Assembly (NCBI GenBank): GCA_036555725.1 | Contig: DATBKU010000039.1 | Span: 742-64,741 of the forward strand | Length of the DNA: 64,000 nt | Direction of reading: 5' to 3' | Origin: Streptosporangiaceae bacterium | GTDB taxonomy: Bacteria; Actinomycetota; Actinomycetes; Streptosporangiales; Streptosporangiaceae | Shown here: positions 13,313 through 51,886 of the stretch, one piece after another | Layout of the letters: each line of letters begins with the position of its first letter | Position numbering within the stretch: the stretch's first letter is position 1 | Position numbers and translations under genes: made by a program | Notes under the pieces: model-generated | The model's input: the letters and a program-made list of their open reading frames with translations, nothing else | What the model was told of the DNA's origin: nothing | Databases searched by the model: none

Positions 13313-14011
13313 TCACGCGTGGAGCACGACGGCGATCTCGGCGCCGCGCGGCGTCATCGAGCCGGGCACCGGGGTCTGCGTGCGCACCGAGCCGTTGCCG
13401 TTCGTCACGACCACGCGCAGCCCGTACTTGGCCGCCGCCGCCCGGGCCTGGGCCAGGCTGAGCCCGCGCAGGTACGGCACCGTCACCTGATCCGCGGCCG
13501 GAACGCCGTTGGAAACGTACAGGGTGACCCGCCCGCCGATCGGCAGGCCGGTTCCGGCCGCGGGGAAGCTTCGGACGACCTGTCCGGCGGGCAGCGCGGA
13601 CGGGACGCGCAGGATGTTGGCGACGATCAGCCGGGTGGCCCGCAGCCGTACGCGGGCGGTCTGCTGGTCGAGTCCCTCGGTCGGGGGCACGGCGACGTGG
13701 GGGGTGATCGCGACGCGCCGGACCGGCGCCTTCCCGGCCGGGGCCGCGGGCGCCACCGTCTCGACGGGCGCGCCGTCCTGCTGGGTGGCCGCCGCGGGCC
13801 GGGCCGGTGTCTCCGGGCCGGAGTCGCCGCTCAGGTGGCCCATCAGGGTCACCATTGCGAGCACCGCGGCGACGCCGGCGGTCATGATGCCGCCCAAAGT
13901 CAGCATCGTGCGGGTCGACATGTCCTGGTCAGGCCGCCGCTCCTCGGGATCGGCCGCCCAGGTCCTGGTCTGTTCGCGGGTGGTCTCGGGCATCGTCGCT
14001 GTCTCTTCCAC
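13313..14011 (-). CDS. membrane-anchored PASTA-domain protein
   Basis: One TM helix (MLTLGGIMTAGVAAVLAMVTLM), an Ala/Pro linker, then two PASTA-like repeats (VPYLRGLSLAQARAAAAKYGLRVVV...). The start could instead be ATG 13993. Confidence 0.65.
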   Translation of the reverse strand: MEETATMPETTREQTRTWAADPEERRPDQDMSTRTMLTLGGIMTAGVAAVLAMVTLMGHLSGDSGPETPARPAAATQQDGAPVETVAPAAPAGKAPVRRVAITPHVAVPPTEGLDQQTARVRLRATRLIVANILRVPSALPAGQVVRSFPAAGTGLPIGGRVTLYVSNGVPAADQVTVPYLRGLSLAQARAAAAKYGLRVVVTNGNGSVRTQTPVPGSMTPRGAEIAVVLHA

Positions 14012-19690: not shown

Positions 19691-22369
19691 TTATTGGAAC
19701 CGCAGGCGGCGGACCGGTGGGTCGGCCAGCTCCGCCTCGGCGCCGCTATCGAGGAAGCAGCGCAACCAGTATGGCCCGGTCTGTCCGGACCGGGGCTTCG
19801 GGATGGAAACCTCCAGGTCGGTGGGGCCGGTCAGGTCGAGGTCGTCCCAGGCGGCGACCGGCTCGCCGTCGCCCGGCCGCTGCGGGATGACCTTGCCGGC
19901 GCTGCGCACCAGCGTGAGCCGCCGCAGCCGGACGGACTGGTCGGGGGACAACGACAGGACGAGCCCGCGCCGCCACGGAGGCCCGGTCCGGTACAGGTCG
20001 TAGCGCACCAGGCACCGTCCCGGCACGGTCGTCGTCACCGGCGCCCCGCTCAGCCGGCTGCCGCCGGTCAGCCCGATCGAGCACACGGCGACCTCGACGG
20101 CGGCGCTCTCCGGTACGCCCAGCCGCAGGCCACCCTGCGCGTCGTACGCGGCCCGGGTCACCGTCAGCCGCCGCGGCCCGTCGCCGTTGACCTGGTAGGC
20201 CGCCTCGACCTCGGCCACCCCGGGCGGCCAGTCGAAGCCGACCATGATCACCTCGCCGCGGCGCTCGGCGACCAGGCCGGTCGGCGGCGGCAGGTTCACG
20301 TGCCGCCGGTGCGCCCCGATCGCGGCGGTGTCCCCGGCGATGGTGACGGCGAGCAGCACCCCGGTCGGGGCCTGGAACCGCAGGCCCTCGCGCGGCGGGG
20401 TGGCCGTGATCGGTACGGCGGCGAGCCGGCGCCCGGTCCGCAGCACCTCGGCCATCGGCACGATCGAGCCGTACGGCCACGGGGGCGCGGCGCCCAGCAC
20501 GACGACCTCGGCGGTGCCGCTCGACGGCGCGGCGAACGTGGCCACCACCCGGCCGGGATCGCCGGGGTCGGGCTCCACGGTGAGATCGGGGATGGGGGAG
20601 GGCGGCGCGGCGGGCGTGGCGGACCGCCATACGCCGGGCGTCGTCACCTCCGCCCCGTCGCGGTCCAGATAGACGGCGGTCAGCCGGTAGTGATACGTGC
20701 CCCCGTTCCGTACGGCGTGGTCGCGGAAGCTCTCCCGGTCGGCGGGCACCGGTACGTCGCCGCGAGTCACCAGCGTGCGGGCGGCCTCGGGCGGGCAGCG
20801 CCATCGGCCCGTCACCACGCCGTCGCCGGCGAACAGCTCGACGTCAGACGGCTCCGGCCGGACCAGCACCGGACCGGCGATCACGGGCGGGGCGGCAGCG
20901 TCGCCGCGCTGCGCCACCACGGCGTACGTGAGTGGCACGTTGACCGGCGGCCGCTCGTCGCGCACCGCGAGGTCGGCGGTGACCGCGATCTCCGTGCCGC
21001 TCCCGCCCGGCCCGGCCCGGACGACCTGGTAGTCGATATCGCCGGCCGTCGACGGCGAGGCCGGCCAGGTCAGCTGAACGGCCGTCCCGTCGACCGTGGC
21101 CTGCGCGGCGGGCACCGGACGGGGCGGCAGCCGGCGCCGGTGCTCCTCGGCGCCCGGCAGGTCGGGGACGAGCTGCAGTGCCTCGGCGAGCAGGTCCCAC
21201 GCCCGGTCGGGGTCCGGCGTGGCGGCCGCCGCGGACCGCAGCCGTACTCCCTCGGCCACCCGCTGCCGCGCCTCGGCGCCGAGGATGGTGGCGTCGCGGT
21301 CGAGGTTGCCGGGGGCGGTCTCGGCCAGCAACGCCTCGGCGACCAGCGCGGCGGCGTGCACCTCGCCGGCGTCGATCAGCTCCCGCAGCCGCCCGGCCGG
21401 GCCGCCCGCGCGCCCGCCCTCCTCCCGCTCGATGGCGAAGACGAGGCGCTGGGCGTCGTTTTCGTCGAGGCCCAGGTCGGCGGTCGCGTACCGCAGCAGG
21501 GCCCGTTCCGAGGCGCGCATGCGCTGCCGCTCCCGCAGCCGGTCCGCGATGTCGTACAGCACCAGCTCGTCGAGCTTCTCCTGCTTGACGGCGACCTTGA
21601 GCGCGACGAGCACCGTGTCGGCGTTGGTGGCGCTGCTGTCACGGGCGTGCCGCGCCCAGCGCTGCGCGACGGCCTCGACCTCGTCGCGGTCCAGCCGTAC
21701 GCCCGGGGCCTGGAAGCCGCCGAGCACCCGCATCGACCCGGTCAGCCGGGCGCCGAGCACGAAGTCGGGCACGTGCCGGTTGCCCAGAACATGCAGCGCC
21801 TCCCGTACGCGCTGAAAGGCCTGGTACGGCGGGACCGTGGGCAGCGGGTCGGGGTCGCGGATCTCGACACCGGAGGCGGCGGCCAGCTCGGCCAGCTCCG
21901 TCACGGCCAGTCCGCCCGCCCGGGCCAGGCTGTCGATATCGGCCGGGGCGAGCAGGCCCAGCGCGCCGGCCGCGTCGAGCAGCCGGGCCTTGGCCTCGAC
22001 CCGGCGCCGGGTCGTGTTCGCCTGCGCCGCGCGCAGCCTGGCCTGCAACGGCCCGAGGTCGCCGCCGGCCGCAGCGTCGAACACCGGCACGAGGGCGCGA
22101 TGCTCGGCCTCCAGCCGGTCGATCAGCTTGCGGTACTTCAGCTGGCCGCGCGCCCGCCGCCAGACCTGCCGCACCTCCTTGACCGAGCCGGCCACCTCGG
22201 CGGGCCGGAGCGGCTCGCGGAGCCGGTAGCGTACCCGCAGGTCCTCGGGCGGCTGGTCGCCCGCCGCCCGCGCGGGCTCCAGCACCTCCTGCTTGTACGC
22301 CTCGTCAACGTTCATGGGCTTGCTTCGCTTCGCCGGCTCGCGCGCGTTCGCCCGCGTGCTCGCGTGCAA
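19691..22369 (-). CDS. 892-aa protein: N-terminal helical region plus C-terminal FN3/Ig-like beta-sandwich array
   Basis: TTG start at 22369, 7 nt after AAGGTGAG and 3 nt after the Hsp70-like stop; alternative ATG at 22315. FN3-like segments (TAVQLTWPASP...YQVVRA, GGTYHYRLTAVY). No signal peptide, TM helix or HPD motif. Confidence 0.65.
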   Translation of the reverse strand: MHASTRANAREPAKRSKPMNVDEAYKQEVLEPARAAGDQPPEDLRVRYRLREPLRPAEVAGSVKEVRQVWRRARGQLKYRKLIDRLEAEHRALVPVFDAAAGGDLGPLQARLRAAQANTTRRRVEAKARLLDAAGALGLLAPADIDSLARAGGLAVTELAELAAASGVEIRDPDPLPTVPPYQAFQRVREALHVLGNRHVPDFVLGARLTGSMRVLGGFQAPGVRLDRDEVEAVAQRWARHARDSSATNADTVLVALKVAVKQEKLDELVLYDIADRLRERQRMRASERALLRYATADLGLDENDAQRLVFAIEREEGGRAGGPAGRLRELIDAGEVHAAALVAEALLAETAPGNLDRDATILGAEARQRVAEGVRLRSAAAATPDPDRAWDLLAEALQLVPDLPGAEEHRRRLPPRPVPAAQATVDGTAVQLTWPASPSTAGDIDYQVVRAGPGGSGTEIAVTADLAVRDERPPVNVPLTYAVVAQRGDAAAPPVIAGPVLVRPEPSDVELFAGDGVVTGRWRCPPEAARTLVTRGDVPVPADRESFRDHAVRNGGTYHYRLTAVYLDRDGAEVTTPGVWRSATPAAPPSPIPDLTVEPDPGDPGRVVATFAAPSSGTAEVVVLGAAPPWPYGSIVPMAEVLRTGRRLAAVPITATPPREGLRFQAPTGVLLAVTIAGDTAAIGAHRRHVNLPPPTGLVAERRGEVIMVGFDWPPGVAEVEAAYQVNGDGPRRLTVTRAAYDAQGGLRLGVPESAAVEVAVCSIGLTGGSRLSGAPVTTTVPGRCLVRYDLYRTGPPWRRGLVLSLSPDQSVRLRRLTLVRSAGKVIPQRPGDGEPVAAWDDLDLTGPTDLEVSIPKPRSGQTGPYWLRCFLDSGAEAELADPPVRRLRFQ

Positions 22370-22372
22370 CTA

Positions 22373-23959
22373 TCAGCTCACCTTGATCTTGGAGAGGGCG
22401 GCGCGGGACTTCTCGACCTCGGCCTCGGACATGCCGCCCACGTCGACCTGCAGCTCGAGGCGGTCACCGCTCTCCTTCTCGACCGCGGTGACGTGCAGCA
22501 GACCGGACGGGTCGAGCGCGAACGTGACTTCGATCGGCCAGCCGGCCTTCTTGCCCGGTGGGACCTTGACCGAGCCGGTGGCGATCTCGGTGTTGTCGGC
22601 CGGGTCGGCTGACTCGACGCTGCCGGCCTGCTCCATGACCTTGATGTCGGCGGCGTCCTGGTTGTCGTGGACCGTGTAGTAGTCCTCGGTCTTGGCCGCC
22701 GGCAGCTCGTCGTTCGCGTGGACCAGGTGACTCACCCGGTCGATGCCGCCGGCCTGCTGGTCGAGCACGATGATGCCGAACGCGCGCGACGCGACCGTCT
22801 TGATCTGGCGGCCCGCGATGTGGCGTCGCTGCTCCTCCGACAGCCCGGCCTTGCTGGCCATCTCCTCGGCCTTCTCCTCGGCGCCCTGCCGCAGCAGCCG
22901 CCGGTACGTCTCCTCGAAGGCGTACAGCGCCGCGCCCTTGGCGACCGCGAGGTCGGGGTCCTGCAGCCGCGGCGGCAGCCCGATCTCGTTCTCCAGCCGG
23001 GCCGCCACGCTCGGCATCTTCGTGGAGCCGCCGACGAGCACCAGCTCGTCATAGTCGTTGACGCCCTTGTCGGCGGCCGTCGCCAGCGTGCGGCCGGTGA
23101 GCTCGATCGTGCGGTCGAGCAGGTCCTTGGTGAGCTCCTCGAAGCGCTCCCGGGTGACCTCGATCGCGGCCACCCGTCCGTCGTGCATGACCCGTACGGT
23201 CTGCGCGGTGCGCGTGGTCAGCGCCTTCTTGGCCTCCTCGGCGTCGCGGCGGAGCTGCTGTTCGGTCTGCTTGTCGTCGAGCGGGTCGCCCGCGTCCGGG
23301 TGCTCCTTGCGGAACTGCTCGGCGAGGTACTCCACCAGCCGGGCGTCCCAGTCGGCGCCGCCCAGCTCATGGTCGCCGTCGGTGCAGATGACCTCGATGT
23401 GCCCGCCGCGCAGGGTGATGACCGTCGTGTCGAACGTGCCGCCGCCCAGGTCGTACACGAGGAGCGTGCGGTCCTGGTCTGGGTTGAGCACGCCGTACGT
23501 GATCGCCGCCGCGATCGGCTCGGAGATGATGTCGATGACGTTGAGCCCGGCGATCTGGCCCGCCTTGCGGGTGGCGTCGCGCTCGGCCGCGCCGAAGTAG
23601 GCCGGCACGGTGACGACGACGTCGCGGGCGTACTGCCCGGTCGTGGTGTGCGCGTCGGTCGCTAGCTTGAGCAGGATGAACGCGGACAGCTCCTCGGGCG
23701 TGTAGTCGAACCCGTGGATGTGCCGGGTGACGTCACGGCCCATGTCGCGCTTGATCAGGCTGACCACGTTGTCGGGCTCGAGCACGGCGGTGTCCTTCGC
23801 CGTCGCGCCCACGATGACGTTCTCCGCGGTCTCGAAGAAGACAACGGACGGCGTGGTATCGGTGCCCTCCATATTGCGCAGCACCGTCGGGCGGCCGACC
23901 TCGTCGATCGAGGCGATACACGAATACGTGGTTCCCAGGTCAATGCCGTAGACAGCCAT
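22373..23959 (-). CDS. Hsp70 family protein (DnaK-like, lid-less)
   Basis: MAVYGIDLGTTYS, DLGGGTFD and LVGGSTKMP actin-fold ATPase motifs. The SBD-beta is recognisable (WPIEVTFALDPSGLLHVTAVEKESG). The protein ends ~25 aa later, without the helical lid or EEVD tail. Confidence 0.9.
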   Translation of the reverse strand: MAVYGIDLGTTYSCIASIDEVGRPTVLRNMEGTDTTPSVVFFETAENVIVGATAKDTAVLEPDNVVSLIKRDMGRDVTRHIHGFDYTPEELSAFILLKLATDAHTTTGQYARDVVVTVPAYFGAAERDATRKAGQIAGLNVIDIISEPIAAAITYGVLNPDQDRTLLVYDLGGGTFDTTVITLRGGHIEVICTDGDHELGGADWDARLVEYLAEQFRKEHPDAGDPLDDKQTEQQLRRDAEEAKKALTTRTAQTVRVMHDGRVAAIEVTRERFEELTKDLLDRTIELTGRTLATAADKGVNDYDELVLVGGSTKMPSVAARLENEIGLPPRLQDPDLAVAKGAALYAFEETYRRLLRQGAEEKAEEMASKAGLSEEQRRHIAGRQIKTVASRAFGIIVLDQQAGGIDRVSHLVHANDELPAAKTEDYYTVHDNQDAADIKVMEQAGSVESADPADNTEIATGSVKVPPGKKAGWPIEVTFALDPSGLLHVTAVEKESGDRLELQVDVGGMSEAEVEKSRAALSKIKVS

Positions 23960-23971
23960 GGCCTCTACCAC

Positions 23972-24595
23972 CTAAATGGACTCTGCGGATGCGTTTAGGC
24001 GCGGGGGTGCGGGTGCCGCGTCGGCGATCTGGCCGATCACGACCTCGGCGCGGCGGAGTATCTGTTCCCCCTGGCCGAACCCGTCGGCCCGCACCGCTAC
24101 GACGGCGCCGTCGAGCACCAGGTCCGTGACCGGCGCGGTGTCGACCGGCCGGTGCCGTACCGGGTCGAAGCGCTCGCCGGGCTCGACCGCCAGGCGCTCG
24201 GCGCCGGTACGGGCCAGCGCGTCGGCGATCTCGTCGGCGATGGCCGCCAGCAACGGCGCGGCGTGCACCGCGTCTGGCCGATCCGGCGCGGCCCACCGCC
24301 CCGACTCACGGCGCACCATGTCGTGCAGCCGGTACAGCGCGGTGCGTACCGGATCGAGCATGGCCTGCAGCTCACCGCGGCGCAGCATCTGGTTGTCGTC
24401 GTGCAGCCGATCGATGACCGCCTCGCGGTGCGCGGCGCGTTCGTGTTCACGCTCCGTAAGCGCGCTCAGGCGTTCCAAAGTGGCCTGAACCGCGGCCAGC
24501 CCATCACTCAGGGCGATTTCGGCATCGGAGGTGGGCCGGGTGAACGCAGCGGGAACGGCGCCGTTGTCGCTGGGGGAAGTATGTGCACTCGACAC
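23972..24595 (-). CDS. GrpE-like nucleotide exchange factor
   Basis: GTG start. Long coiled-coil-like N-terminal half, then GERFDPVRHRPVDTAP...VVAVRADGFGQGEQILRRAEVVIG, which matches the GrpE C-terminal FDPxxH ... R.A.V.V pattern. The stop lies 12 nt before the Hsp70-like ATG. Confidence 0.7.
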   Translation of the reverse strand: MSSAHTSPSDNGAVPAAFTRPTSDAEIALSDGLAAVQATLERLSALTEREHERAAHREAVIDRLHDDNQMLRRGELQAMLDPVRTALYRLHDMVRRESGRWAAPDRPDAVHAAPLLAAIADEIADALARTGAERLAVEPGERFDPVRHRPVDTAPVTDLVLDGAVVAVRADGFGQGEQILRRAEVVIGQIADAAPAPPRLNASAESI

Positions 24596-24675
24596 GTGGA
24601 CAAACCCTAACGGTCGGTAACCCTTAACGATAGCCCAGCATGCCGAAACAGCTGAGCATTCTCTGTGTCGATACT

Positions 24676-24718
24676 GCCGTGAATCACGCCGGAAACGTAG
24701 GCCCTGCAGCCGTGAATC
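24676..24718. promoter_or_regulatory. direct repeat GCCGTGAATC x2 (33-bp spacing) upstream of the GrpE-like operon
   Basis: Copies at 24676-24685 and 24709-24718, 80-125 nt upstream of the GTG at 24595. The function is inferred only from position. Confidence 0.25.
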
Positions 24719-25021
24719 CCGCGATCAGGAGTAGATTATCCGAGGTCAGCGGCGGTCACACTGTTTGCCGCGTATCCGGGTCTGTTGCCCTTCGGGAAGC
24801 CCGGTTCGTGCCCACCGGCCCCGGCGTGTTCGGCGGCATCGACACGCCCGGCGTCCGGCCGGTGCCGCCGCGGCGCCGACGGCACGCCCTACGGCTTGGC
24901 CCGTCAGCGGGCCCGAGGTAGTGGTGCGCGTCGCCCGCCGATCGCGACGACCCAACCCCTTCACATCGCCATCCGGATCCCCTCGTTAGGCGTGATGACT
25001 CGGCTATTTTCCGACGACAAA

Positions 25022-25107: not shown

Positions 25108-25132
25108 TGGACACATTGGCCGATTGTGTCCA
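25108..25132. promoter_or_regulatory. inverted repeat TGGACACA-N9-TGTGTCCA
   Basis: Perfect 8-bp arms about 190 nt upstream of the first kinase ATG. A GCCGATTGTG direct repeat overlaps both arms. Confidence 0.25.
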
Positions 25133-25323: not shown

Positions 25324-26565
25324 ATGGGTTCGAAGCCGATCGGCCCGTACGAGGCGCTGCGCAAACTGGGCTCGGGGGGAATGGGGACCGTCTATCTCGC
25401 CCTGGACGCAGAAGGTCATACGGTGGCGGTCAAGGTGATCCACCCGCACGTGGCCGAAGACATGAACGGCCTGAAGCGGCTGGCCAGAGAAGTCGAGACC
25501 ATGAAACGGGTGGCGAGTCCGTATGTGGCCGAGTTGCTCGACGCCGATTTGACCGGCAGCCATCCCTACATCGTCACCCGTTATGTGCAGGGCCGGTCAT
25601 TGCAAGACGTGGTCACGCGGCGCGGCACGCTGACCGGTGACCAGCTATGGACACTGGGTAAGGGACTCGCCGCCGCGTTGGACGCGATCCACGGAGCCGA
25701 CGTTATCCACCGGGACCTCACGCCCGGCAATGTCATGCTCTCCGATGGCGTTCCCATCGTCATTGATTTCGGCATCGCCCGGGCATTTGACGCGACGCGT
25801 ATCACCCAGACCATGATTGGCACCCCCGGCTATGTCGCCCCCGAAGTGATTCGGGGGGAACGCGCGGGGCCGCCGGCCGACGTCTTTTCTTGGGCGGCCA
25901 CGATGATCTACGCCGCCACCGGCAAAAGGTGCTTCGACGGCAAAAATCTCATGGAGGTTTTTCAACGCACGCTCGAAGCGGAGCCGGATCTCACCGGCGT
26001 CCCGCGTGATCTGCTGCCGGTGCTGTGGAAATCCTTGCGCAAGGATCCATCCGAGCGGCCGTCGCTGGCCGGGGTGATCGGCACCGTCTCCACTCTCGCA
26101 CCCGACACGACGTGGCCGGCCGTGCCGTCGCGGCGCACGTCGGCGAGCCGGCTCCCAGGGCTGTGGGCGGCCGCCGGGGAGGCGCGCGAACGGGGCGACA
26201 TCAATCGTGCGGCCGAGCTCTACGCCGAGGTTTGGAAGGTCGCCATCAGCAACGAAGATCCTGGCAGCGAGATGTTCGCGCTCTACCAGCTCGGGTGGGC
26301 GGCGGAGTCCCGCCTCGACTATGGCGCGGCCCACGGCTTCTACGAGCAAGCGCTGCAGGCCGCGAAATCCGTGGACGCCGCGTCCATCCAGGCGCTGGCG
26401 CTGCGTGAGCTGGAGCAGCTCTCCCGCATGAGGGGCGATACGGACGCCGCGCGCGCCTACGCGGAGGAAGCGCGCCACGTGCTGGACAAGAGGTACAAGG
26501 CCGGTTATCCCCGGCTCCCGGACGGGGACAGCGAGCCCTTCGTGCGGCCGTGGGTGCGCGGGTAG
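25324..26565 (+). CDS. Hanks-type Ser/Thr protein kinase with C-terminal TPR-like module (soluble)
   Basis: GSGGMGTVY G-loop, VAVKV, HRDLTPGN catalytic loop, DFG and APE. The C-terminal ~120 aa contain TPR-like helices. No TM segment. Confidence 0.9.
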   Translation: MGSKPIGPYEALRKLGSGGMGTVYLALDAEGHTVAVKVIHPHVAEDMNGLKRLAREVETMKRVASPYVAELLDADLTGSHPYIVTRYVQGRSLQDVVTRRGTLTGDQLWTLGKGLAAALDAIHGADVIHRDLTPGNVMLSDGVPIVIDFGIARAFDATRITQTMIGTPGYVAPEVIRGERAGPPADVFSWAATMIYAATGKRCFDGKNLMEVFQRTLEAEPDLTGVPRDLLPVLWKSLRKDPSERPSLAGVIGTVSTLAPDTTWPAVPSRRTSASRLPGLWAAAGEARERGDINRAAELYAEVWKVAISNEDPGSEMFALYQLGWAAESRLDYGAAHGFYEQALQAAKSVDAASIQALALRELEQLSRMRGDTDAARAYAEEARHVLDKRYKAGYPRLPDGDSEPFVRPWVRG

Positions 26566-26580
26566 CGATAGGTGGCTATA

Positions 26581-26607
26581 TTTGTGATGCACACTTTGTG
26601 ATGCACA
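26581..26607. repeat. tandem direct repeat TTTGTGATGCACA x2 (14-bp period) in the inter-kinase spacer
   Basis: Copies at 26581-26593 and 26595-26607, read directly. AT-rich and 70-95 nt upstream of the second kinase ATG. Each copy has a TGTG..CACA symmetric core. Confidence 0.6.
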
Positions 26608-26676
26608 TAAACTAGGCGTTACTTGATCGGTGCTGTCGGAATGGGGCGTCCCCCGCGGCCCTGGGAGTGGATCACG

Positions 26677-27918
26677 ATGCATCCGGATCGGGTCGGCCCG
26701 TACGAGGTGCTGCGCAGACTGGGCAGCGGCGGAATGGGTTCGGTCTACCTGGCTCTGGACGAAGACGGCCACACCGTCGCGGTCAAGGTGATCCATCCGC
26801 ATGTCGCCGAGGACGTGAACGGCCTGCGCCGGCTGGCCCGCGAGGTGGCGGCCATGAAGCGGGTGGCGAGCCCGTTCGTCGCCGAGCTGCTGGACGCCGA
26901 CCTCGACGCCGACCCCGCTTACCTCGTCACCCGCTACGTGCAGGGCCTGTCGCTGCAGGAGCTCGTCGAGCGGCGCGGCCCGCTGACCGGTGAGGCGCTG
27001 TCGAGCCTGGGCCAGGGCCTGGTGACGGCGCTGGACGCCGTCCACGGCGTCGACGTCGTGCATCGGGACCTCACCCCGCGCAACGTCATGATGGCCGACG
27101 GCGTCCCGACGGTGATCGACTTCGGCATCGCGCAGGCCTTCGACGCGACCCGCATCACCCAGACCCTGATCGGCACGCCCGGGTTCGTGGCGCCGGAGGT
27201 GATCCAGGGCGAGCGGGCCGGCCCGGAGGCGGACATCTTCTCCTGGGCGGCCACGATGGTCTTCGCCGCGACCGGCCACAAGTGCTTCGGCGGCCGGAAC
27301 TTCCTGGAGACCCTGCACCGGACGCTGGCCAAGGACCCCGACCTGTCCGGCGTGCCGCACGAGCTGACCACCATCCTCGCCCGCTCGCTGCGCAAGGACC
27401 CCGCCCGGCGTCCGCCGATCAACGCGCTGATCGCGGGCATCTTCATCAAGTCCCCGGGCGAGGCGCCGCCGGTTCCGTCGCAGCGGCAGAGCCCCGCGAG
27501 CCGGGTCGCCGCCCTGTGGTCCGCGGCGGGGCAGGCTCGGGAGAAGGGCGAGCACGGCCGGGCCGAGGCGCTGTACGGCGAGGTACGGCAGCTCGCGGTC
27601 AAGTCAAAAGACCTGGCCGGCGAGATGTTCGCCACCTACCAGCTGGCGTCCGCCGCCGAGCACCGCCGAGACTACGGCGCCGCACAGGACTTCTACGGCC
27701 GGGTACAGGACATCGCCAGGAGACTGCGCTCGCCGACCATCGAGGCGCAGGCGCTCCAGGGCCTCGAACGCCTGGCCCGCATGACCGACAACACGAACCT
27801 GGCCTGGGCCTACGCCGAGCAGGCCCGGCGGGTGGTGGCCGACAAACACACCCAGGGTTATCCGAAGCAATTCGAAGAGCCCGACGGCGAGCCCCTGTTG
27901 CGGCCCTGGACGCCCTGA
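26677..27918 (+). CDS. Hanks-type Ser/Thr protein kinase with C-terminal TPR-like module (paralogue of 25324..26565)
   Basis: Same architecture as the first kinase and collinear with it over the full length. HRDLTPRN catalytic loop. Confidence 0.9.
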   Translation: MHPDRVGPYEVLRRLGSGGMGSVYLALDEDGHTVAVKVIHPHVAEDVNGLRRLAREVAAMKRVASPFVAELLDADLDADPAYLVTRYVQGLSLQELVERRGPLTGEALSSLGQGLVTALDAVHGVDVVHRDLTPRNVMMADGVPTVIDFGIAQAFDATRITQTLIGTPGFVAPEVIQGERAGPEADIFSWAATMVFAATGHKCFGGRNFLETLHRTLAKDPDLSGVPHELTTILARSLRKDPARRPPINALIAGIFIKSPGEAPPVPSQRQSPASRVAALWSAAGQAREKGEHGRAEALYGEVRQLAVKSKDLAGEMFATYQLASAAEHRRDYGAAQDFYGRVQDIARRLRSPTIEAQALQGLERLARMTDNTNLAWAYAEQARRVVADKHTQGYPKQFEEPDGEPLLRPWTP

Positions 27919-48742: not shown

Positions 48743-51700
48743 GTGCAGATCGGGATCCTGGGACCATTCGAGGTTCGTACGGGCGACGGCGTCTTCGCCG
48801 ACGTGCCGGGCGCCCGGCTGCGCGGGCTGTTGATCGCCCTCGCGCTCGAACCAGGTCGCGCAGTCCCGAAGGCGACGCTCGTTGACTGGATTTGGGGTGA
48901 GCACCCGCCCTCCGACGCTGCGAATGCCTTGCAACGCTTGGTTTCCCGGCTGCGCAAGGTGCTGCCGGATGGATTGGTCGAGGGGCAGCCGGACGGCTAC
49001 CGGTTGAAGGTGGAACCTGACGCTGTCGACGCCGTGCGGTTCGAGCGCCTCGTGGGCCAGGCCCGCGACGACGAGGATCCACTGCGGGTGCGGCGGCTGC
49101 GCGAGGCCCTCGCATTGTGGCGCGGCGCGGCCATGCAGGACGTCGGCCTGCAGGAGAGTGCCGCGTTTGACGCGGCCGTCACCCGGCTCGAGAGGCTACG
49201 CCTGACTGCCATGGAGGATCGGTTCGATGCGGAGATCAGCCTCGGCAACGGCGGCGAGCTGGTCACGGAACTGACCGACGTGGTGGCCGCGCATCCGCTG
49301 CGAGAACGGCTTGTCGCCGCGTTGATGCGTGCCCTCGTCGCGTCCGGCCGCGGCGCCGAGGCGCTGCTCGTGTACGAGCGCACACGAGAGGCCCTGGCCG
49401 ACGCGCTAGGCGTCGACCCTGCACCCGAGCTGTCCGCACTGCACGTCGCGCTGCTGCGCGGTGAGTTGGGACGGCAGGAGGAAAGCCGGAAGACCAACCT
49501 GCGTGCCGAACTGACCAGCTTCGTCGGCAGGGACGCTGATGTCGCCGCGGTCCGCGAACTCATCGCCGACCATCGGCTCACCACCCTGATCGGGCCGGGG
49601 GGCTCGGGGAAGACAAGGCTGGCCACGGAAACCGTGCGCACGCTGCTCGGCGACCTGCCGGACGGGGCCTGGCTGGTCGAACTCGCGGCCATCGGCGCCG
49701 ACGGTGACGTGGCGCGAGCGACACTCGCCGCGCTCGGCCTGCGGGATGCGCTGCTCGGCGAGGCACCGGACGCGCCGCCGGCAGATCGGGTCATTGCCGC
49801 GGTCCGCGAGCGGGCGATGTTGCTGATTCTGGACAACTGCGAGCACGTGATCGACTCCGCCGCGACATTCGCCTATCAGGTGCTCGGAGAGTGCCGGCGG
49901 CTGCAGATCCTCGCGACGAGCCGGGAACCTCTCGGCATCACCGGTGAGGCACTATGGCGGGTCGCGCCGTTGGTCCTGCCCGCGGAGGATGCCGGCCCGA
50001 ACGAGATCGAGTCCGCGCCGGCCGTCCGGCTGTTGCGGGACCGAGCCGGCGAGGTGCGCAAGGACCTCGCGACCAACGCCCACACGTTGTCGACCATGGC
50101 GCGCGTCTGCCGGGCGCTGGACGGGATGCCCCTGGCGATCGAACTCGCCGCGGCTAGGTTGCGCACCATGTCCCTCGATCAGCTCGCCAACCGGCTCGAC
50201 TACCGGTTCCGCCTGCTGACCGGCGGCAGCCGTACCGCGCTGCCGCGGCACCGAACGCTGCGGGCGGTAATCGACTGGAGCTGGGAGCTGCTCACCGAAG
50301 CCGAACGGACGGTCCTGCGCAGGCTCTCGGCGTTCTCAGGTGGTGCGAGCCTGGAAGCAGCCGAGCGGGTTTGCGTGGGTGCCGGGGGCGAGCAGGAGCA
50401 GGTGTTCGACTCGCTGACCGCGCTGGCCGAGAAATCGCTGGTGCTCGTCGAGGGCGACCGGGCGCCGCGCTACCGGATGCTCGGTACGATCAAGGAGTAC
50501 GCCGAGCAGCGTCTCGCGGAGGCGGGGGAGTCGGAACTGGCGCGCCGTGCGCATCTCGCCTATTTCACCGAGTTCGCCGCGACCGCGGAGCCGCATCTTC
50601 GCCGCGCCGAGCAATTGACGTGGCTTGCCATGCTCGAGGTCGAGCACGACAACATCGGTGCCGCGATGCGCGGTGCGCTCGCGGCCGGCGATGCGGACGG
50701 GGCGATGCGGCTCGCCGCTGCCGCCAGCTGGTACTGGTGGCTCGGCGGGCACAAGGCTGAGGGCAACGAGCTGATTGTGGCGGCCGCTGACCTGCCCGGC
50801 GACGTGGCCGACGAGATCCGGGCCACGGTGTACGCGTTCGTCGTCACGTTCCTGGTCTCCGGGCGTGGTGATCATTATCACGCGGCGGAGTGGATCCACA
50901 AGGTGTACGAGATCAGTCGGCGGGTCCCGAGCAGTCACCCGGCAATCAGGCTTGTCGCCCAACTGGACGGCCTGTTGCAAGCGCCGGCCCCGGACGCGTT
51001 GCTGCCCTTGTTCGAACCGCTGCTCACCGACGAGGACGGCTGGGTACGGGCGGTTGCCCGGCTGCGCCTCGGCAGGATGCGGATCATGCTTGGCGACGAC
51101 AGCCGGGATGCGGACGAGCACCTCGAGACGGCGGTCACCGAGCTTCGCGCGCTCGGCGAACGGTGGTGGCTTTCGTTCGCCCTGACCGATCTGGCGAATC
51201 GAATCGCCATGCGCGGCGAGTTTGCCGGTGCGTGCGAACACTATGAAGAGGCGATCGCGGTCGTCACCGAGGTCGGGGCCATCGAGGACGTTGTGCCGAT
51301 GCGGTCGCGGCAGGCCCAGTTGTACTGGCTGCTGGGCGACGCGGAGTCGAGCGCGGCCGCCCTGGCGGAGGCGCAGCGCTACGCGGAACGTGTCGCCTGG
51401 CCGAATGCGCTGGCCGAGCTGGCCCTGGCGAAGGCGGAGCTGGCGCGCTGGAGGGGCGACGTCGAGCAGGCACACCGGCAACTCGGCGTCGCGACGGCGA
51501 TGCTGGGCAATGACGCCGAGCGGGTATACATCCGCGCGGCAACCCAAGACCTGCTCGGCTACCTCACCGGGGATCTCGATGCGGCCCGCGAACACCGCAA
51601 TGCGGCCTTCCAGGCGGCGTCCGAAACGGGGCACGCTCCGCTGATCGCTCAGGTGCTCGTTGGGATCGCGGATCTGGCGCTGCGTAACGAACAGTACGAG

Positions 51701-51886
51701 CAGGCCGCGCGGCTGCTCGCGGCGAGCGCCGACGTGCGCGGCCTGCCGGATCGTTCCCAACCGGATGTGGCCCGGATCGAGCAGACCGCGCGGCGTCGCC
51801 TCGGCGAAGCGGGATTCGCCGAGGCGACGCGGGAGGGTGCGCAGGCAAACTGGCGCGAGTTGGCCGCGGTCACGCTCGCTTGTTGA
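48743..51886 (+). CDS. AfsR/SARP-family regulator (OmpR-type wHTH + BTAD + NB-ARC ATPase + TPR)
   Basis: GTG start. MQIGILGPFEV...GYRL wHTH, then a BTAD (ALALWRG..., LLVYERTREALADALGVDP). Walker A GPGGSGKTRLA. Long helical-repeat tail. Confidence 0.9.
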   Translation: MQIGILGPFEVRTGDGVFADVPGARLRGLLIALALEPGRAVPKATLVDWIWGEHPPSDAANALQRLVSRLRKVLPDGLVEGQPDGYRLKVEPDAVDAVRFERLVGQARDDEDPLRVRRLREALALWRGAAMQDVGLQESAAFDAAVTRLERLRLTAMEDRFDAEISLGNGGELVTELTDVVAAHPLRERLVAALMRALVASGRGAEALLVYERTREALADALGVDPAPELSALHVALLRGELGRQEESRKTNLRAELTSFVGRDADVAAVRELIADHRLTTLIGPGGSGKTRLATETVRTLLGDLPDGAWLVELAAIGADGDVARATLAALGLRDALLGEAPDAPPADRVIAAVRERAMLLILDNCEHVIDSAATFAYQVLGECRRLQILATSREPLGITGEALWRVAPLVLPAEDAGPNEIESAPAVRLLRDRAGEVRKDLATNAHTLSTMARVCRALDGMPLAIELAAARLRTMSLDQLANRLDYRFRLLTGGSRTALPRHRTLRAVIDWSWELLTEAERTVLRRLSAFSGGASLEAAERVCVGAGGEQEQVFDSLTALAEKSLVLVEGDRAPRYRMLGTIKEYAEQRLAEAGESELARRAHLAYFTEFAATAEPHLRRAEQLTWLAMLEVEHDNIGAAMRGALAAGDADGAMRLAAAASWYWWLGGHKAEGNELIVAAADLPGDVADEIRATVYAFVVTFLVSGRGDHYHAAEWIHKVYEISRRVPSSHPAIRLVAQLDGLLQAPAPDALLPLFEPLLTDEDGWVRAVARLRLGRMRIMLGDDSRDADEHLETAVTELRALGERWWLSFALTDLANRIAMRGEFAGACEHYEEAIAVVTEVGAIEDVVPMRSRQAQLYWLLGDAESSAAALAEAQRYAERVAWPNALAELALAKAELARWRGDVEQAHRQLGVATAMLGNDAERVYIRAATQDLLGYLTGDLDAAREHRNAAFQAASETGHAPLIAQVLVGIADLALRNEQYEQAARLLAASADVRGLPDRSQPDVARIEQTARRRLGEAGFAEATREGAQANWRELAAVTLAC

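Follow-up and report, generated by a model that had tools for sequence, protein, structure and literature searches.

A lid-less, linker-less Hsp70 and a GrpE-like protein placed by sequence in a six-gene GAP1-N2 GTPase-centric system of actinomycetes

What drives the ATPase cycle of an Hsp70 that has neither a helical lid nor the canonical interdomain linker, that is encoded beside its own GrpE-like protein and that has no obvious J-protein at its side? The question is raised by a 64,000-nucleotide stretch of a Streptosporangiaceae genome assembly (GCA_036555725.1, contig DATBKU010000039.1, positions 742 to 64,741; G+C ~70%), hereafter the window, in which the two genes lie on the minus strand (Table 1). 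A first-pass annotation made from the letters alone had described a specialised and J-protein-less Hsp70. By sequence, the genes of the GrpE-like protein and of the Hsp70 open a six-gene GAP1-N2 GTPase-centric system of the HSP70-GrpE theme (Kaur, Burroughs, Iyer, Aravind, eLife 2020, PMC7159879), a membership that the annotation missed. The fibronectin type III (FnIII) repeat protein encoded next to the Hsp70 probably carries a J-like domain devoid of the His-Pro-Asp (HPD) tripeptide.

Four tightly spaced genes follow the Hsp70 gene on the same strand and encode the FnIII protein, a DO-GTPase, GAP1 (GTPase-associated protein 1) and a second DO-GTPase, with the GAP1 gene starting 2 nt past the gene of the 400-residue GTPase. 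The assignment to the GAP1-N2 system is made because Pfam matches to DO-GTPase2 (twice), GAP1-N2, GAP1-M, HSP70 and GrpE were obtained and because the zinc-ribbon and transmembrane layouts of both GTPases fit the published description. The 400-residue GTPase displays CPYC, CPEC and CPEC motifs together with the P-loop GAKNAGKS. The 584-residue GTPase is laid out as N-terminal transmembrane helices, a zinc ribbon (CPSC and CPHC motifs), the P-loop GGPAAGKT and a C-terminal transmembrane helix, the helices being counted from a simple hydropathy scan alone (peaks at residues 7-25, 140-158 and 558-576). The cassette thus shares with the published theme an HSP70, a GrpE, an FNIII-repeat protein, a DO-GTPase with two zinc ribbons, a GAP1 with N2 and M regions, a second DO-GTPase with N- and C-terminal transmembrane helices and a mostly actinobacterial host range, and differs from it in that no enzymatic effector is recognisable in the window cassette. 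The main text of Kaur et al. 2020 (PMC7159879) already notes HSP70, GrpE and an FNIII protein fused to DnaJ or TPR, and predicts that systems of this class serve multicellular bacteria as a regulated apparatus of biological conflict or of the cell-suicide type; all functional statements made there are predictions.

A profile made from the FnIII protein's N-terminal part, scanned over one genome per GTDB species, gave 145 confirmed loci, of which 80 were retrieved; these belong to Actinomadura, Spirillospora, Actinocorallia, Actinoallomurus and metagenome-assembled genomes (MAGs) of Streptosporangiaceae. The order GrpE, Hsp70, FnIII protein, GTPase, GAP1, GTPase is kept in all 80 as far as the contig reaches, with identities to the window proteins of 72-93% for the Hsp70 and ~38-93%, mostly 43-58%, for GAP1. 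The Hsp70 has GrpE upstream of it in 86 of 87 loci, and the Hsp70 and FnIII genes are always adjacent. The cassette was also found from five divergent Hsp70 matches, co-occurrence of Hsp70 and cassette being strict in every context looked up. The same cassette occurs in Streptomyces mobaraensis, in a Nocardia and in a MAG of Micromonosporaceae, as well as on a metagenome contig of unassigned origin; the S. mobaraensis copy has one GTPase and, in the GAP1 position, a 749-residue protein without a Pfam match. Thermomonospora curvata and Actinomadura graeca are, like S. mobaraensis, carriers whose genomes are complete. The Hsp70 family comprises more than 100 clusters, ~527 residues long, among at least 8000 scored Hsp70 homologues, and the genes flanking the cassette differ among lineages.

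The Hsp70 retains the catalytic core of the chaperone. Its open reading frame (ORF) extends over 22373-23971, and the ATG at 23959 yields 528 residues, a start call that identical JGI metagenome contigs share. Alignment to solved DnaK structures places the nucleotide-binding domain (NBD) at residues 4-347, followed by the β-sandwich of the substrate-binding domain (SBD-β), whose residues 405-517 align to residues 380-488 of M. tuberculosis DnaK. The ATPase and relay residues D8, K70, P143, R151, E171, D194, T199 and D201 (DnaK numbering) are kept and are invariant in 44 of 44 family members aligned at 57-92% identity, in agreement with the ATPase motifs and SBD-β recognised in the first-pass annotation. 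The mapping onto E. coli DnaK agrees with the PDB alignment of M. tuberculosis DnaK. The SBD-β pocket is similarly conserved at the equivalents of Q433, I438 and F426.

The departures from DnaK concern the linker, the lid and the surface that receives the J-domain. The segment FEETYRRLL...IAGRQIKT, which replaces the interdomain linker, is 41 residues long where DnaK has ~15, and the VLLL linker motif reads R-Q-I-K in the window Hsp70 (R-Q-I-K-T at the VLLLD position). An AlphaFold2 (AF2) model of the protein (pLDDT 89.6, pTM 0.87) folds the inserted segment into helices 335-357, 361-370 and 375-383. The annotated replacement of the linker by a helical insert therefore stands, with three helices; its size of ~45 residues does not, the segment being of 41 residues and the net gain ~26-31. 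Beyond SBD-β the chain continues for 24-25 residues containing one helix (512-522), compared with 139 residues in DnaK, and ends at about position 499 of the 625 of M. tuberculosis DnaK, so that the helical lid is indeed absent, as had been proposed from a tail of ~25 residues. The interdomain segment measures 41-43 residues in 38 of the 44 family members, and the 24-residue C-terminal stub is conserved as well. Among DnaK structures, the model fits the domain-docked ATP state best (7kzu, TM-score 0.85; 4b9q, 0.83; 5nro, 0.83) and the undocked ADP state less well (2kho, 0.59). Lid-less variants of DnaK bind and release substrate more quickly than the complete protein. At the J-domain-receiving surface, R167, N170 and T173 of DnaK are replaced by D143, S146 and I149 (window numbering), and aspartate occupies the R167 position in 44 of 44 family members; Arg167 is the residue that we take to contact the aspartate of the J-domain HPD tripeptide.

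These features support the view that the protein is a specialised Hsp70 and not a housekeeping DnaK, as the first-pass annotation had suggested, because it scores 355 and 352 bits against the NCBIfam DnaK equivalogs (cut-offs 648 and 822), is without lid, linker and the arginine of the J contact, shows no heat-shock operator and lies in a conserved operon with candidate partners. NCBIfam HscA is matched at 296 bits (cut-off 708), no HscC model is among the matches, and no isc or hscB genes were found in the window. HscA and HscC of E. coli use HPD-containing J-proteins (HscB; DjlB/DjlC) and are not known to use GrpE, in contrast to the window pair, which has its own GrpE and a candidate HPD-less J-like domain. 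In other respects both are comparable to it: they too are Hsp70 paralogues of a dedicated kind, their lids are shortened, and the genes of their private co-chaperones lie close by (PMC13580251, citing Kluck et al. 2002).

The product of the first cassette gene is, from its sequence, a divergent GrpE-like putative nucleotide-exchange factor. The Pfam GrpE match covers the C-terminal half and exceeds the gathering cut-off of 25.8 bits, residues 69-189 align weakly to T. thermophilus GrpE (3a6m), the protein also aligns weakly to the GrpE structure 8gb3, and the NCBIfam GrpE equivalogs score 23 bits against cut-offs of 167-266. Its position directly upstream of the Hsp70 gene agrees with the annotated private GrpE-like protein, and 68 distinct related loci keep the context of its GTG start, CACGTGTCGAG.

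The FnIII protein is organised as a conserved helical N-terminus, the J-like domain, a helical-repeat region and Fn3-like repeats. It is 100% identical to a protein of a Streptosporangiaceae MAG, and the Fn3_SaeA_5th assignment comes from precomputed Pfam results on the identical protein. In the AF2 model of residues 1-420 (pLDDT 92) the chain is all-helical, with β-strands beginning at residue 405. A profile search of 1.84 billion representatives defined an FnIII family of 3585 proteins at E ≤1e-3. Relatives of ~1020 residues carry, at residues ~185-245, a segment such as DLYDFLGVPPDAERALLTERYHAVEQEWRPRAADFRKTAANDLLGIIK that aligns to helices I-III of J-domains with an hhalign probability of 90.3% (E 1.5e-6); a reversed control and ten controls with shuffled columns stayed at or below 0.2%. 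For five of six fragments of such relatives, Pfam DnaJ came first among the matches, though below its threshold (E 0.0015-0.055). Compared with the window family, the segment of the longer relatives aligns to residues 164-275 at a probability of 98.4% (E 5.4e-15). The genuine Pfam DnaJ model agrees with the J-domain alignment used here. Taken together, residues ~164-275 are probably a J-like domain, recognised through profile comparison by way of the longer relatives.

Within this register the KYHPD of J-domains corresponds to EWRPR in the ~1020-residue variants and to RWARH in the window protein. The family consensus is W-A-R-R, with W220, R222 and D226 invariant, and the sister clade displays R-P-R at the HPD position. 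The position of the HPD aspartate is occupied by Arg, His or Lys in 195 of 256 FnIII family members. The AF2 model shows in this region a short helix (182-187), a β-hairpin insert, a helix (210-221), a loop (222-228) and a further helix (229-244), the last three elements resembling, as modelled, the hairpin formed by J-domain helix II, its loop and helix III. The description of the Hsp70 as J-protein-less is therefore not supported, the adjacent FnIII gene carrying a probable, transitively detected J-like domain; this protein is probably the conserved DnaJ-like neighbour that the first-pass annotation had itself named as speaking against its reading. That annotation had noted no HPD motif in any ORF of the operon; a single copy of the tripeptide does occur, inside the Hsp70 NBD (KEHPDAG), and none occurs in a J-domain context. 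A J-domain hidden Markov model gave no match in the six-frame ORFs of the window and of 87 related loci.

Two other candidates for a J-partner were rejected. Residues 20-70 of the FnIII protein (DLRVRY...RRARGQLKYRKLIDRLEAEH) received no hhalign support, and the segment homologous to that of the longer relatives maps to 164-275. A stand-alone gene in the Nocardia locus L089 (1208-1897, 229 residues) with a weak Pfam DnaJ match lies 8 kb upstream of the cassette, behind an oppositely oriented HerA/DUF87 gene cluster, and was judged probably unrelated. Several side observations concern the wider FnIII family. Its FnIII domains are named in Pfam/UniProt after 'SaeA' (PF25832-PF25835, Fn3_SaeA_2nd to 5th); the literature search did not find a paper defining SaeA, so that a characterised homologue may exist, and a paper on 'SaEAS' proved unrelated. 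Some relatives (P0256, P0261, P0273, P0341 and P0308) carry an N-terminal caspase (Peptidase_C14) or trypsin-like domain before the same helical and Fn3 architecture, and P0341 is in addition fused to a DO-GTPase. These protease domains fit the classification as a conflict system.

A related arrangement is found in a sister clade, in which the ~1020-residue FnIII variants occupy the same cassette order, with extra Hsp70 paralogues that include an Hsp70-vWA fusion. The cassette Hsp70 of this clade (558-559 residues) is 44-46% identical to the window Hsp70, compared with 33% for E. coli DnaK; it is similarly lid-less, has a longer helical insert and displays histidine at the R167 position. Up to four Hsp70 paralogues are present in these cassettes (L092 3562-9950 and 16888-18978; L093 and L094 likewise), comprising a 558-residue lid-less form, 724- to 834-residue forms, a 457-residue NBD-only form and a 690-residue Hsp70-vWA fusion, the last located between GAP1 and the second GTPase; L092 has two GrpE genes.

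The aspartate of the DnaJ HPD tripeptide, D35, contacts DnaK R167 in PDB 5NRO, and the DnaK substitution R167H reportedly suppresses DnaJ D35N. The replacement of R167 by Asp or His in the cassette Hsp70s parallels the Arg, His or Lys found at the HPD-aspartate position of the FnIII proteins, and for this reason the Hsp70/J-like contact is suggested to be re-wired, possibly charge-swapped, a change that would insulate the pair from the housekeeping DnaK and DnaJ. A possible but doubtful extension is that of a fully orthogonal pair, in which Hsp70 Asp143 (His in the sister clade) would face Arg or His at the HPD-aspartate position and the Hsp70 would be fired only by its own partner and be blind to DnaJ. 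A J-domain fold without HPD inside a dedicated Hsp70 machine is known in eukaryotes, for example from Tim16/Pam16, a regulator that is not known to stimulate the Hsp70 and works with the true J-protein Pam18. With its probable J-like domain the window cassette would resemble this case in both respects; it differs in encoding no true J-protein and in the change on the Hsp70 side (R167D/H), which suggests an interface that is re-wired and not silenced. The main text of Kaur et al. 2020 (PMC7159879) is silent on lid and linker loss, on an HPD-less J-like domain and on the R167 change, and the text of its supplement has no DnaJ, GrpE or HSP70 entries. The loss of lid and linker throughout this Hsp70 clade, the HPD-less J-like domain and the replacement of R167 matching an HPD-less loop appear, as far as that text goes, undescribed.

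Compared with the canonical DnaK-DnaJ-GrpE machine, the cassette retains an actin-like NBD with its catalytic and allosteric-relay residues, a β-sandwich SBD, a GrpE-type factor and a partner with a putatively J-domain-derived helical hairpin, detected transitively. In contrast, it displays no lid or C-terminal tail, a 41-residue helical segment in place of VLLL, the changes R167D, N170S and T173I, a J-like domain without HPD, no HspR/HrcA operator and a location within a GTPase operon. The reading that we favour, and to which we give somewhat better than even weight, is that the GrpE and the Hsp70 form an ATP-driven module of a membrane-associated GAP1-N2 double-GTPase system, fired by the J-like domain of the FnIII protein. 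The Hsp70 would bypass the DnaJ of the cell and take as its partner the adjacent FnIII protein, which would be its own client or scaffold, through a degenerate J-like domain in which HPD has become Ala-Arg-Arg (Ala-Arg-His in the window). Asp143 would pair with a basic residue of the loop in place of the Arg167-Asp35 contact, thereby insulating the module from DnaK/DnaJ, and the private GrpE would reset the nucleotide state of the Hsp70. With the lid missing, clients would bind and leave quickly, and the Hsp70 would serve to clamp or remodel, under nucleotide gating, a complex of FnIII protein, GAP1 and GTPase at the membrane instead of folding proteins in general. What the system as a whole does, whether in defence, in regulated cell death or in the envelope or development, is a prediction of the literature.

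Several observations weigh against this proposal. The J-domain homology of the window family is transitive only, through the ~1020-residue relatives: compared directly with J-domains, residues 160-275 of the family (188 sequences) give an hhalign probability of 0.3%, in the same register, and residues 1-130, 1-420 and 20-100 give nothing. With E allowed up to 10, Pfam finds neither DnaJ nor TPR in the FnIII protein of the window, and a Foldseek search of the 420-residue AF2 model against the PDB returned no match with E <1 and no J-domain in the top 50, the matches to TPR/HAT proteins being weak and non-significant. At the key HPD-aspartate position the window protein itself has His (H223) and not Arg. 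Both positions of the putative charge swap are invariant in the actinobacterial clade, so that covariation rests on two clades, and the predicted contact of Asp143 with Arg/His223 derives from sequence. The literature search found no experimental characterisation of the GAP1-N2 system and no later study. PADLOC models gave no credible match to the cassette proteins (marginal ones only, E 7e-4 to 1e-2), the strong PADLOC matches in the window being those of the neighbouring kinase to kinase-containing models. Finally, the cassette stands amid ordinary sugar-metabolism, transport and regulator genes and has a conserved ACT-domain neighbour in Thermomonosporaceae, which points to a stable chromosomal location; it looks chromosomal and largely vertically inherited rather than like a mobile defence island. 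The ACT-like gene encodes a 222-residue protein, judged by eye only, that lies divergently upstream in many Actinomadura and Actinocorallia loci (L016 6731-7399, minus strand); kinase genes stand in its place in the lineage of the window.

The same gaps in the J-domain evidence can be read in another way, namely that the Hsp70 is truly J-independent, with the helical region of the FnIII protein serving as a relic or scaffold, hydrolysis triggered by client binding or by the GTPase/GAP1 pair, and R167D abolishing any J input. The lack of an HPD and of a Pfam-level J-domain in 87 loci, the lack of significant direct similarity of the window FnIII family to J-domains and the loss of VLLL, a linker needed for J-stimulated hydrolysis, would all be expected here. 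A relic should however decay, and the J-like region ranks with the better-conserved portions of its protein (W220, R222 and D226 being invariant), is kept across deep clades and belongs to a protein whose gene is always adjacent to that of the Hsp70; J-independence is thus regarded as unlikely. Lid-truncated Hsp70s oligomerise through binding of the linker to the SBD, and the fold matches of the window protein include the entries 7a4u/7a4v ('lid-truncated BiP in an oligomeric state'). This leads to the idea of a nucleotide-dependent self-assembling effector, comparable to the tubulin of other GAP1-N2 systems and not a client chaperone, an idea in keeping with the main text of Kaur et al. (PMC7159879), where tubulin and HSP70 are set as alternative, non-overlapping themes and both are suggested to be multimeric. 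The linker that mediates such oligomerisation is however replaced in the window Hsp70, its SBD-β pocket residues are conserved, and the dedicated GrpE and probable J-like partner make up the full kit of a client-cycling chaperone, which leaves self-assembly distinctly improbable, more so than J-independence.

Least probable of all, and by our estimate very improbable, is that the protein is a second general DnaK ('DnaK2') that serves bulk proteostasis with the housekeeping DnaJ and has the GTPase genes as neighbours by chance. Its closest characterised relatives by sequence are indeed the DnaKs of M. tuberculosis and Geobacillus (E ~1e-83), and public annotations name the family 'molecular chaperone DnaK'. 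Yet the protein falls below every NCBIfam DnaK and HscA cut-off, lacks lid and linker, carries R167D and has no heat-shock operator, and the co-occurrence with the cassette was strict in all five independent look-ups made from the Hsp70 side.

Control of the cassette also appears to depart from that of heat-shock genes. Neither CIRCE (up to 5 mismatches) nor HAIR (up to 3 mismatches) was found anywhere in the window, which extends the absence that the first-pass annotation had reported for the upstream region, and neither was found in 84 distinct upstream regions of related loci (up to 4 and up to 3 mismatches, respectively). A promoter-like block directly precedes the GTG start of GrpE; the window has TTAGGGT where the family form is TTAAGGT. 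The hexamer TAAGGT/TAGGGT fits the actinobacterial -10 pattern TANNNT, and on this basis the block may be a promoter specific to the family, giving a transcript with no leader or a very short one and having a -35 element unlike that of sigma70 promoters. A second conserved block, CGTTTCC-N3-4-GTGTTACCC-N5-GTGTCG, lies ~150 nt upstream of the GrpE start; the conserved non-coding blocks span 24596-24720 on the minus strand of the window and recur in 68 related loci. A leader RNA or riboswitch upstream of grpE was rejected, as RNAalifold gave no consensus structure there and Rfam no match in the window. The palindrome of the intergenic region was rejected as an operator of the cassette, its conservation being confined to contigs of the same organism and its chance occurrence amounting to 15 of 100 shuffles.

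The genes around the cassette were inspected for further components. Two paralogous Ser/Thr protein kinases, both with helical or TPR-like C-termini, diverge from it, and a direct repeat, GTGCATCACAAA, occurs twice in the spacer between them (~26580-26610). The first kinase failed the gene filter based on G+C at third codon positions (GC3) and lies in a stretch of lower G+C, suggesting lower GC3. The kinase is present in single copy, at 66-67% identity, only in the closest MAGs (L008-L010). Neither a PP2C nor a vWA partner was found among the neighbouring genes scanned. The kinases were rejected as part of the system (the kinase theme of Kaur et al.), since they are confined to this lineage and its closest MAGs and are absent from the Actinomadura loci. 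A match to the PASTA protein encoded beyond the last GTPase gene was found by tblastn just downstream of that gene in 21 of 87 loci (33-64% identity, and 100% in the three contigs of the same organism). The protein could be an accessory, specific to the lineage, that ties the system to peptidoglycan, or its position could be a coincidence. Farther away, the codon usage of a SARP/AfsR-type regulator may be atypical.

Table 1. Positions in the 64,000-nucleotide window of the cassette genes, of the elements discussed and of neighbouring genes.
Feature	Position	Strand	Basis or remark
GrpE-like protein, 207 aa, cassette gene 1	23972..24595	-	Pfam GrpE, 34.4 bits
Hsp70, lid-less and linker-less, 528 aa	22373..23959	-	Pfam HSP70, E 3.4e-107; PDB alignment; AF2
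FnIII-repeat ('SaeA-like') protein, 874 aa	19691..22315	-	Precomputed Pfam Fn3_SaeA_5th
DO-GTPase with N-terminal zinc ribbons, 400 aa	18381..19583	-	Pfam DO-GTPase2, E 6.7e-10
GAP1, N2 type, 734 aa	16174..18378	-	Pfam GAP1-N2, E 3.8e-41; GAP1-M, E 2.9e-21
Membrane-anchored DO-GTPase, 584 aa	14416..16170	-	Pfam DO-GTPase2, E 3.4e-20
Helical segment replacing the DnaK interdomain linker, Hsp70 residues 348-388 (41 aa)	22796..22918	-	Translation
Codon of Hsp70 Asp143, at the DnaK Arg167 position	23531..23533	-	Mapped to E. coli and M. tuberculosis DnaK
Probable cryptic HPD-less J-like domain, FnIII protein residues ~164-275	21491..21826	-	Transitive hhalign; HPD-equivalent A221-R222-H223
Promoter-like block CTATCG-N17-TTAGGGT/TTAAGGT-N8-GTG	24596..24650	-	Conserved in 68 distinct related loci
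Perfect palindrome GGACACA-N9-TGTGTCC	25109-25131		Overlaps the sole sigma70-like promoter match of the 728-bp intergenic region
Two paralogous Ser/Thr protein kinases, 413 aa each	25324-26565; 26677-27918	+	Divergent from the cassette
Single-transmembrane-helix protein with PASTA domains	13313-13993	-	~420 bp downstream of the last GTPase gene
SARP/AfsR-type regulator, 1047 aa, Trans_reg_C and BTAD	48743-51886	+	Missed by the GC3-based gene filter

The Hsp70 family to which the window protein belongs is widespread in filamentous actinomycetes, and shows how much an Hsp70 can shed. Lid, linker, HPD contact and apparently heat-shock control have gone; the ATPase site, the β-domain, the GrpE and a partner that is probably J-derived, being J-like by transitive comparison, have stayed. 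If the charge swap is wrong, the protein would still be a correctly placed member of a system catalogued in 2020. If it is true, the pair would show in nature, and in a form open to direct test, how an Hsp70 and its J-partner are kept apart from the housekeeping chaperones, as an insulated Hsp70 circuit within a membrane GTPase machine of the immune or suicide type, and a first experimental study of GAP1/DO-GTPase systems could start from it.

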